From: a virus
Taxonomy: Duplodnaviria; Heunggongvirae; Uroviricota; Caudoviricetes
Direction: 5' to 3' (one strand)
IMG/VR virus record: IMGVR_UViG_2563366990_000019
Location: 1 to 21,332 of that record
Length of the DNA stretch: 21,332 nucleotides
Shown here: positions 6,001 to 9,000 of the stretch, one piece after another
Numbering within the stretch: the first letter of the stretch is position 1
Layout: the number at the start of each line of letters is the position of its first letter
Program-made: the position numbers

Positions 6001-9000
6001 CGTTCGCCTGCCGGATGGGTACCACAAGCCACAAACTGCTGGCCCTTAGCGAGCAGCTCTATTTGTTTGTTTTCGCCTTCCAGGCGGTGACCACGTTTAC
6101 GGTAGTCGCCATCAACAGCAATCAGGTACAGGCATTTATGACTGTCAGCCCGCCAGCGACGTGGCGGAAGTTCCCCCAGGCATGACAGGATAATATTGCG
6201 TACGATCTCCTGCATCCCGGCGTCATTGATATCGCAGTCCAGAGCCACCACCCCGTCGCCAGTACGAACGCAAATACCGTAATCGGGTTCGTTCGACCAC
6301 CGGGAAAAATCGTTTTCCGTAACAACATAGTTAGCCCAGTCGGGGATACCAACAACCTTACGTTGGCCATTGTAGCGACTGGGAGTTTTGCCGAAATTAT
6401 GAGACAGCTTGCTATTAGGCGACAGTTCTGCACAGGGATTGGACACCACAGGTAAAAGCCTGTCTGTCATCCCCAACACCAGATCGAAGTGGAACCACTC
6501 ATCGGGCGTAGCTCCCCAGGGTTTGTTATCAGGCATGGGTTACACCTTTTGCTGCTCTGAATTTTCGCCGTTTAATAGCCAGTCAGGATCGCATTTCAGA
6601 ACTTTTGCCAATTCAAGGATGAAACCGGTACGGGTGGCGCGTCCTGACTCAAGGTATTGAACAGACTGCTGGCGCATGCCAACACTTTCAGCCAATGAAG
6701 TTTGGGTTATACCTAAAGCTTTGCGGCGCTCCTTTATACGTGAAGCAAGGGTAGAACTGGTCATTGAGTAAGCCCTCATTATTACAGGTTTACTTGTAAT
6801 TACCTCACAGGCAACCTTGTTTGTCAAATACAGAAGTATCTGTAATCATCAATGACAGAAAAGGAGTCAACATGAATCTTGCCAACCGAGCTAAAAAACG
6901 CAGAACAGAACTAAACTTAACTCAGGTCGAAGTTGCGAAACGAGCGGGCATTAGCCAGCAGTCGATTGAAGCTATAGAGAACGGGAAAACACTTAAACCA
7001 CGCAATCTTCTTGCTTTAGCGTCAGCTCTTGAATGCGATCCTAAATGGCTACTTCTTGGGGGCGATGTTGTTACAGATTTCAACTACGGAGCCCGAAGGG
7101 TGCCTGTTCTAAGCTACGTACAAGCAGGGGCTTTCACAAGCGCTGAGCTACTTCGTGAAGAAGGTGATTTCGAATACATTCTCACCACGGCTGAGCTATC
7201 AGAAAGTTCATTTGCGCTACGTATACGTGGGGATTCAATGGAACCTGAATTTAAAGAGGGGGACATCGTTATAATTGACACTGACGTATACCCTACTCCT
7301 GGTGAATTCGTTGCGGCATGTAACGGTAGCCACGAAGCAACGTTCAAAAAATACCGCCCGGTAGGGATTGGCGCTAAGGGTGAGGAAGACTTTGAACTTG
7401 TTCCATTGAATAGTGATTACCCTATTTGTCGCTCCTGGGAAAAACCAATTAAGATCATAGGGACAATGGTAGAACATCGCATATTCCGCAGAAAAAGATA
7501 ATCGCATCCTGACTACTAAACAAAGAGGGCTTAGGCCCTCTTTTTTTATTACCTGTAAAAACAAGTAATTAGGTTAATAATGCATTTTATTACCAGAATA
7601 CCTGTTGACGCACTTACAGGTTTGCTTGTATTTTTAACCGCAATAAGTAATCGCTCTTTAACAAACTGAACCGCGTGACAGGTAAGCCGCAGTACTCCTG
7701 GCAAAATGAAATGGCACCCGATGGGATCGAGGTAAGCGCCGAGTCCGTATGCGTACGGTAAGCGTAGAGGACAACACCGCGACGAGCTGATAAGTCACGC
7801 AAATTGAAACGCCCCGATGATGGGGCGTCTGAACCAATGGAGGAAAACATCATGCACAAGTAAAACGCTCAGACCGCAGCAGCCGAACCACCAAAGAGAA
7901 CTGAATGAGGAAACGGTGTGAAAACATATAAACCGCTCAAAGGTGAATGCCCTGCTTGCCAAGCACAACTTCAGGCACCAAAGCCTGAACGATACCAAAT
8001 CAACGAATGTTATGAGCACTGCCCTGAATGTGGTGCTTTCCTGTACGCCATTGCAACGCACTGGCGTGTCCGCTTCAACCTTGTGGTACCTCGTACGCAC
8101 AATACCAACTGAATCATCCATGTAATTGCTGTGTGTAGTCTTTGCCCGCCTCACGTGACGGGCTTTTTTATGTCTGAAAGCGCACTCGCAACAGCGTGCT
8201 CCCCGATATGAAAAAAGGAATACAACCAATGAAACCTGAACACCTCTATCGACTGACGGGGCGCGATGTTCTCCGTTATCGCCGTAAAAACTTCGATTTG
8301 ATGACCGGTCTGGCCGTTGCCACTGCGCTCGGTCTGATCATCACTTTCATTCTCCTTGTAGCGAGGACCACAGTATGAGTTTAGAAACCAGTCTCGAACT
8401 TAATAATCAACTTCTGGCACAACATAATGCGCTGCTTGAACGTCTTATCCGCACAATGGCATCAGGTATTGTTATGCATCCTGACACGATTTCACGAGTG
8501 CAGGAATGTCGGGATACAGCAACTGAAGCTGAAAACATGTCAGCGGCAATGACACTGGATGATCTGGAGTTCAGCGACGTTATCGCACTGGCTGGTTTCT
8601 ACCCGGTAGCCACCCCTATCACAGAAGACATGCTGCAACGTGCTGTTGCCTACCGTGATGCTGAAGGCGATAAACGAGTAGTTCAGATTGATGCTCTCGA
8701 CAGCGCATTACAGGGCGTCAAACGAGCCAGGGCGCTGCTTAAACCTGCTCTCCTGGACCTGTCCCGTAACATTCTTAAGTTCTGGGACGACCTGCCAACC
8801 ATCGGCGAGCGACGTGCTTTTGCCGAGCAGCTACTTGATGCACCTGCAGATGGGCGTGATGAAGTTAAGCCGAAAAGGGCCAGTAACAAAGATGGAGAAC
8901 GCACGGGGCCGTTTTACGTCAAAAATGTATCCGGCACAGCAGCCAGTGAACTCCACACCTTACGCAAGTTGAACGAGATGCTGAAAAAAGGCCATATCGA

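Follow-up and report, generated by a model that had tools for sequence, protein, structure and literature searches.

A mobile boxA-led structured RNA in early-left leaders of Escherichia and Enterobacter-type prophages, a candidate cis-acting antitermination signal

We analysed a window of 21,332 nucleotides (nt) from a virus of the class Caudoviricetes (IMG/VR record IMGVR_UViG_2563366990_000019, positions 1 to 21,332), concentrating on the leader RNA of its early-left operon, which contains a boxA-led RNA cassette at 7653-7828. The window belongs to a temperate, non-lambdoid phage and is matched by the Stx2a prophage of E. coli 89-3156 with 100% identity over 7500-8200 and 99.2% over 2957-15079; stxAB is absent from the window and, in 89-3156, is located between the tRNA and the DUF6645 gene. 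Genes for a VapE primase and Q are found in the right operon, and those for a DUF2800 nuclease, an Enc34-type SSB, PolA and SNF2 in the left. Upstream of the leader, a + strand gene (6872-7501) encodes a CI-like repressor with a helix-turn-helix (HTH) and an S24 peptidase domain (Pfam Peptidase_S24, 2.4e-18; HTH_3), a product named 'LexA family protein' in RefSeq, and its transcript is closed by an intrinsic terminator with a 9-bp stem followed by a T-run (7522-7543, + strand). Repressor and leader are co-directional, as are lambda cI and pL.

The early-left promoter region extends over 7549-7634 (+ strand). A promoter scan placed the -35 box TTGACG at 7605-7610 and the -10 box TATTTT at 7629-7634, with a spacing of 18 nt, and three operator-like sites are found at about 7549-7568, 7587-7605 and 7614-7631, copies of the cI/cro intergenic region at 6779-6801. 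The last of them, TTACAGGTTTGCTTGTA (7614-7631), which overlaps the promoter, reproduces as a 90% copy the palindromic operator that lies between the divergent cI-like and cro-like genes, at 6782-6801. Since the promoter overlaps a copy of the phage's own operator, the control of the leader by the CI-like repressor, which a first-pass annotation of this DNA had proposed, is well supported.

Downstream of this promoter the same annotation had read a boxA identical to the rrn core (12/12), and it is exact: GCTCTTTAACAA occupies 7653-7664 (+ strand) and has no other exact copy in the window, where simple base-odds arithmetic predicts about 0.0025 by chance. The rrn-type core GCUCUUUAACAA is on the transcribed strand, at about +12 of a transcript whose start is predicted from the -10 box. 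To delimit the conserved unit, we searched 7636-7870 by BLAST against 5,426 complete E. coli genomes and obtained matches in 104, of which ~90 matched exactly 7653-7827 with 96-98% identity and had unrelated flanks. The edges of the match are the first base of boxA on the 5' side and a terminal hairpin, P6, on the 3' side. The core of the leader is therefore a discrete, self-contained cassette (hereafter, the module) of ~175 nt, 7653-7828, and not one 300-nt unit. The leader as a whole is a mosaic in which this RNA module is followed by a 3-codon minigene cassette and by a zinc-ribbon open reading frame (ORF) with an RprA-like terminator.

The module is found well beyond close relatives of the window phage. 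Locus L004, a true lambdoid prophage carrying O/P/ren as well as gam/bet/exo, has an 86% copy, a ~70% version occurs in Enterobacter lambdoid prophages and phages, and a core-pattern search retrieved at least 119 IMG/VR contigs with the module. We distinguished four sequence classes (A-D), comprising at least 128 phage and prophage loci and 82 distinct sequences. Carriers include the Stx2a-converting prophage of E. coli 89-3156 and prophages of enterotoxigenic E. coli (ETEC) H10407 and O103:H2 12009. In class A, about ten unrelated promoter/operator sequences directly abut boxA, which indicates that the cassette travels between immunity regions as a unit. A covariance model (R1) detected one copy per locus, with no second copy in the right operon or elsewhere. 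A pattern requiring a pyrimidine at 7720 revealed no further class in viral and metagenome contigs; another, requiring non-G at 7692 and leaving P4 free, returned 13 metagenome and 2 viral loci, 14 of them new, of which only 4 were real according to the covariance model, all of class A or D. No Rfam 15 family reached its gathering score in 7640-7830. A permissive search (E up to 10) gave no overlaps other than two - strand matches, both far below threshold, RF02188 (15.6 bits vs 55) and RF00558 (reaching only 7633), and RF02578 on the + strand, ending at 7630. Conserved 20- and 23-mers of the core were absent from the literature searched, which does not fully exclude a prior description, and the Eru papers on non-lambdoid Stx phages make no mention of antitermination, nut or boxA.

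The main feature missed by the first-pass annotation is a long-range, multi-helix domain supported by covariation. We built a fold model by hand and scored it on a MAFFT alignment of 81 distinct sequences from the four classes. In the model 90.5% of the cells were paired, compared with 29-45% in controls with slid partners; 13 pairs had compensatory changes on both sides, compared with 2-4; and the covariation score was 0.258, compared with at most 0.061. None of 500 shuffles reached the observed pairing or the observed score. RNAalifold, applied independently to the same alignment, recovered P1-P4, with 10 of 34 pairs compensatory, and added a covarying pair, 7716:7733. Many cells are G·U, where the opposite strand would give A·C, indicating that the RNA is read from the + strand. 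These data bear directly on the idea that the region codes for a protein. ORFs of 51-81 amino acids do exist on the - strand (7614-7859, 7658-7837 and 7549-7704), and in the phage record ON470579 a 144-nt CDS has been annotated on the - strand, overlapping the module; nevertheless, several of the indels between classes are not multiples of 3, the substitutions are paired in RNA helices with G·U pairs on the + strand, RefSeq has no annotation here, and the - strand ORFs match only across the DNA of the module itself. We thus consider a coding function highly improbable.

The supported fold starts with boxA and an 8-nt spacer, followed by a structured core domain of 128 nt (7673-7800, + strand). 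It is closed by the long-range helix P1 (7673-7679:7794-7800), with 4 compensatory pairs, which exists in four wholly different complementary versions (GCGUGAC/GUCACGC, GAGUGAC/GUCACUC, AGCAGCAAA/UUUGCUGCU and AGCAAC/GUUGCU). P1b (7682-7683:7790-7791 and 7685-7687:7786-7788), P2 (7688-7694:7775-7781; 3 compensatory pairs) and the invariant UCCU/AGGA helix P3 (7696-7699:7768-7771) lead to a three-way junction formed by an A-rich strand, P4 and P5, with compensatory pairs present in each of P2, P4 and P5. The A-rich strand, GGCAAAAUGAAAUGGCA (7700-7716), is predicted to be mostly unpaired, and 11 of its 17 columns are invariant in the 81 sequences. RNAalifold adds three pairs there, the invariant 7701:7715 and 7702:7714, which as such give no covariation evidence either way, and 7716:7733, which belongs to P4. 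We left a small hairpin in this strand (7700-7715) out of the model, as the natural changes G7713A and U7712C break the RNAfold pairs C7702-G7713 and A7703-U7712. P4 (7716-7733) is the hairpin (A)CCCGAU-GGG-AUCG(A)GG(U), with compensatory changes at 7720:7728 (GC in 45 sequences, AU in 36) and 7716:7733 (AU in 45, GC in 35). P5 (7736-7765) has a basal helix (7736-7739:7762-7765) and an apical hairpin (7745-7749:7754-7758); its pairs change at 7738:7763 (GC/AU), 7739:7762 (CG/UA) and, in L050, 7749:7754 (AU/GC). The module ends in P6 (7809-7828; -14.2 kcal/mol, z = -4.1), a hairpin without U-tract whose position is occupied in all classes by a hairpin of differing sequence. Two of these hairpins had already been recognised, the apical one of P5 (CCGTA-TGCG-TACGG) with coordinates 1 nt off and P6 (ACGCCCC-GATGAT-GGGGCGT) 2 nt off.

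Three exact copies of GGTAAGC (7681, 7731 and 7757) had also been singled out as repeats of the leader. They are real, and the window contains 8 copies compared with 2.4 expected, a number reached by 1 of 100 shuffles. They are not a conserved repeat: only classes A and B have them, as helix strands within P1b/P2, P4 and P5, and their absence from classes C and D rules them out as protein-binding repeats. Their sole visible effect is a repeat-mediated deletion in one natural variant, L103 (6444-6625, - strand), in which P5 has been lost between two GGTAAGCG direct repeats, the remaining module being intact. This locus is a ready-made natural deletion variant for asking whether P5 is needed.

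Both boxA and its relation to the fold are conserved. The boxA columns are free of pairs in the hand-built model and in RNAalifold alike, and the motif is kept in all homologues, reading GCUC[U/A]UUAA[C/G]AA in classes A, C and D; in class B it is shifted by one U and reads CUUCUUUAACAA. The class-specific versions are GCTCTTTAACAA in class A, which includes the window, CTTCTTTAACAA in B, GCTCATTAAGAA in C and GCTCATTAACAA in D. BoxA precedes P1 by 8-9 nt across classes (8 nt in the window), and boxA and fold are inherited together, with fixed spacing, in 131 of 131 loci. Covariation and boxA conservation in related prophages were among the checks that the first-pass annotation had named, and both are found.

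The best indication of function came from the site that the module occupies. In classes B, C and D it lies ~58 nt into a conserved pL leader, just downstream of a hairpin (GGCGGACAGCAAGUCGCC) that precedes boxA, and both leader flanks are common to phage HK639. In that phage, the exact position of the module is taken by an RNA annotated as a 'putL-like antiterminator RNA', and HK022 putL can be aligned with it; module and put are thus interchangeable at this site. We scanned with the shared 5' leader piece, setting one base so that module-bearing loci were left out, and among the resulting 121 loci (HK639's own counted) put occupies the slot in 101. Such a predominance suggests, circumstantially, that the slot is mainly one for antiterminator RNAs. 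Other occupants were seen as well. A third cassette of ~105 nt (AAGTGGAGTTAGAGGACCGCTTAGAGCCGCCACTTGAATTTCAGCAGGTGACGGGGAGTGCGAGGGGTGTAACGGGCAATGGAGAGCC...), which may be another undescribed leader RNA, is present in L160 (10247-10350) and also in L147, L150, L184, L191 and L216. In L166 (9850-9925) and L219, a perfect boxA, TGCTCTTTAACAA, is followed ~55 nt later by a boxB-like hairpin, CGCGAAAAAUGCG, an arrangement that may represent a classical nut-type variant.

The conserved boxA and fold, the promoter-proximal position, the exchange with put, the absence of a protein partner from the flanks searched and the terminators lying downstream lead us to favour, with somewhat more confidence than doubt, the reading that the RNA of 7653-7828 is a cis-acting processive antitermination signal for the repressor-controlled early-left operon, in which boxA and Nus factors plus a structured domain would replace N-boxB or put. 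The exchange with put is the principal pointer to function, and a circumstantial one. The antitermination role already suggested by the first-pass annotation fits both position and exchange; the binding of Nus factors, the contact with RNA polymerase and antitermination itself are what we infer. Like HK022/HK639 put, the module is a leader RNA just downstream of a repressor-controlled early-left promoter in a phage lacking N, with the same slot between identical leader flanks. Of 87 distinct large co-directional ORFs lying nearest upstream, 58 are S24/HTH repressors and the remainder are morons (extra genes outside the core set) inserted between cI and pL, and in most class A loci the repressor gene stops ~125-175 nt before boxA. 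HK639 has only putL annotated and the module is likewise a single copy in the left operon. Put has no dedicated protein, and none is apparent for the module.

Despite these parallels, the module is not a put. Put acts without Nus factors, whereas the boxA of the module implies their use. No homology emerges when the module is aligned with the put RNAs of HK022 and HK639, the covariance model has no match in either phage and BLAST found no phage match to them. The module lacks the two-stem-loop architecture of put, with its core AACGGCGCG...CCAUGCGUCGG, and in contrast to put, which is ~70 nt long and has no boxA (PMC9378689), it measures ~175 nt and has a consensus boxA start, a long-range closing helix, a three-way junction and a separate end hairpin. 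Put itself has been assayed against mutations in the zinc-binding domain of RNA polymerase beta' (rpoC), which block its activity (PMC9378689).

The similarity with the lambda nut site is also partial. Both share the promoter-proximal early-left position, a boxA, an 8-9 nt spacer before a helix and terminators downstream; however, the boxA of lambda nut is weaker and that of the module is the rrn consensus, and instead of a 15-nt boxB hairpin with an A-rich loop the module has a 128-nt multi-helix domain, whose hairpin loops (GGG, UGCG and GAUGAU) are not boxB-like. The module could still be an oversized nut site, its domain being recognised by a phage N-like protein encoded at a distance or too divergent to be detected. 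The nut-site geometry agrees with this, N proteins, which are small and evolve fast, often escape profile searches, and non-lambdoid mEp021-type phages use an N-like protein, Gp17, with boxA/boxB sites (PMC11893012). In addition, the first conserved gene of the early-left operon in all class A phages (8229-8378, + strand; phrog_11981) specifies a small protein of 49 residues whose N-terminus is rich in Arg (RLTGRDVLRYRRKNF). This protein has a C-terminal transmembrane helix, and classes B, C and D lack it, so that we ruled it out as the partner of the module. Across classes, the flanks share no protein besides the cI and cro homologues, the only ones common to the window and the class B, C and D loci. 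The first downstream ORFs have no common family and none is N-like; there is no match to an N family in Pfam or PHROGs among the early genes; and a cognate N or a consistent small Arg-rich ORF bearing an arginine-rich motif was found neither in the window nor in flanks of ~5-7 kb. The impression of the first-pass annotation that no N-like protein is obvious agrees with these results. Moreover, no hairpin of the module has a boxB-like A-rich pentaloop, and the element replaced by the module, put, is itself protein-independent (PMC9378689). For these reasons we regard an N-dependent site as unlikely.

With the rrn antitermination signal (boxB-boxA-boxC; NusB/E/A/G, SuhB and S4), a system of host factors only, the module shares the 12/12 boxA, and there is no similarity between the rrn leader and the module beyond boxA. 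No upstream boxB or downstream boxC was found in the window, boxA directly following the start. In rrn, boxA precedes the leader-trailer helix, which the Nus complex helps to form (PMC10250234, PMC8632103), and that of the module stands just upstream of the 5' strand of a long-range helix. Consensus boxA elements also recruit Nus factors outside rrn, in the suhB and CRISPR leaders (PMC5725501, PMC7665894); these signals are boxA only, whereas the boxA of the module and a large conserved fold travel together in a single mobile unit. It is conceivable that here too boxA alone is functional and that the fold hitch-hikes with an unrelated function, for example in anti-defence or packaging. This would agree with the sufficiency of boxA against Rho in those other systems (PMC7665894, PMC5725501) and with the unrelated cassettes accepted by the slot. 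We judge it quite unlikely, since the fold clearly experiences both purifying and compensatory selection, the junction strand and P3 vary little or not at all between classes and the boundaries of the mobile unit always take in boxA and fold. Furthermore, an rrn-type boxA alone does not overcome intrinsic terminators. Complexes of rrn type mainly counter Rho, whereas the module is followed, in a phage early operon, by strong intrinsic terminators. The first facing pL transcripts is the RprA-like 3' end at 8144-8172 (+ strand; stem plus U6, -9.8 kcal/mol, placed by the Rfam RprA alignment), with others at 11345-11360 and 12304-12323 (+ strand), and all precede the polymerase/helicase (replication) genes.

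The leader could instead have another role: it might sense a ligand or a protein as an attenuator, serve in processing by RNase III or in stability, or give rise to a small RNA (sRNA) or decoy that acts in trans, with boxA being generic anti-Rho or incidental. In class C the P1 and P2 helices form a nearly continuous helix of ~20 bp that RNase III might cleave, P6 could shield a 3' end, several sRNA-like elements occur in the prophage leaders of this window, and non-rrn boxA elements act against Rho (PMC7665894, PMC5725501). Yet we saw no terminator or alternative fold sequestering a Shine-Dalgarno (SD) sequence tied to the domain, the variable downstream content speaks against a riboswitch dedicated to one gene, all 131 loci keep boxA and the fold together at fixed spacing, and the exact substitution for put is left unexplained. 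Such a role seems to us improbable. As the module matches known antitermination RNAs in position and boxA and differs from put, nut and rrn in the features that define each of them, it probably represents, judging from sequence comparison, a previously undescribed variant among the cis-acting early-antitermination RNAs of phages.

In an antitermination mechanism of this kind, departure of the CI-like repressor from its operators would allow transcription to start at about 7641. Once boxA has emerged at ~+12, host NusB-NusE(S10) would bind to it and seed a Nus complex on RNA polymerase, with NusA, NusG and possibly SuhB. The 5' strand of P1 would appear after eight more nucleotides, and the 128-nt domain (P1-P2-P3, junction, P4 and P5) would fold to provide a second anchor to the elongation complex, equivalent to N-boxB in lambda and to put RNA alone in HK022. 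The polymerase so modified would pass the 8144-8172 terminator, the later ones and Rho-dependent sites in the long, largely untranslated leader. Since boxA lies 8 nt before a helix strand whose partner emerges 115 nt later, we propose that the Nus complex may keep this first strand of P1 close to the RNA exit channel, as was suggested earlier for a leader strand in the rrn leader-trailer helix (PMC10250234, PMC8632103).

Several observations weigh against antitermination. The positional argument is one of guilt by association: at least one other cassette uses the same slot, which may tolerate any leader insert. The extra U in the boxA of class B and the two differences out of 12 positions in class C mean that NusB/E binding is not guaranteed there. 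The family is narrow, with four classes confined to Escherichia and Enterobacter-type prophages, and most of its covariation reflects a few lineage splits with a modest number of independent events, although it is distributed over many pairs. The minimum free energy (MFE) of the whole 280-nt leader is no better than that of shuffles (z = +1.6), and the core alone is thermodynamically unexceptional (z = -0.13). The structure is supported by covariation and, for the leader as a whole, not by thermodynamics. In addition, the search for a partner protein covered ~5-7 kb on each side for most loci, and an internal promoter at 11256-11285 could serve some downstream genes without read-through.

Downstream of the module, the minigene cassette (7839-7863, + strand) has the strong SD GGAGG at 7839-7843 and the mini-ORF ATG CAC AAG TAA at 7852-7863, both as originally read. 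Its layout recurs elsewhere (L004, 5188-5235; L160, 10368-10412): a strong SD, ATG plus two variable codons and a stop, then a GCGGACAGACCGC hairpin, together covering 7839-7880 in the window. The minigene follows the module in 20 of 131 loci and is present in 6 of 121 put/other loci; its 3-codon length is conserved and its codons vary (MKN, MKH, MHK, MKR, MEH and MKQ). The lambda bar minigenes are similar. The Cys-rich first ORF noted before does exist at 7918-8112 (+ strand; 64 amino acids); it is unannotated in RefSeq and no family exceeds Pfam cut-offs. The ORF and the RprA-like terminator region are found at 95% identity in genomes without a match to the module, and they form another separate cassette. 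The 3' end of the ORF and the terminator (8064-8173, + strand) match the 3' half of the sRNA RprA (AAUUGCUGUGUGUAGUCUUUGCCCG...CGGGCUUUUUU; RF00034, 50.4 bits, below the gathering score of 70, E = 2.9e-5), and this stretch may be a prophage-borne RprA-like 3'-UTR sRNA or mimic. A query with 7500-8200 matched 190 of the 5,426 complete E. coli genomes, with 27 places on plasmids and many partial matches.

Two further sets of small RNAs were seen in the window. Within the early-left operon, a tandem of isrK (RF01394, 54 bits) and a C4 antisense RNA (RF01695, 76 bits) occupies 11292-11477 (+ strand), just upstream of a BRO-N gene (11492-12292), and has its own promoter-like site at 11256-11285; the tandem looks like the antirepressor control modules of the P1/P7-c4 or Gifsy-1 IsrK type. 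At 2655-3069 (- strand), STnc100 (162 bits) is accompanied by a tRNA, both downstream of the gene for the antiterminator Q.

To our knowledge, only two solutions to early antitermination exist in temperate coliphages, N with nut and put RNA. We advance tentatively, at rather less than even chances, the stronger proposal that the module represents a third, undescribed class, independent of a phage protein, in which an rrn-type boxA is fused to a put-like polymerase-binding fold, the Nus complex chaperoning P1 and being locked on by the domain without N, and which is exchanged with put in Escherichia/Enterobacter prophages. If true, this third solution, made of a host-factor site (boxA) and a large self-folding RNA, would show how RNA substitutes for N and would offer a compact new system for the study of Nus-complex assembly and RNA chaperoning on RNA polymerase. 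In pathogens, where it is carried by Stx2a, ETEC and O103:H2 prophages, the element may gate replication and early gene expression after induction.

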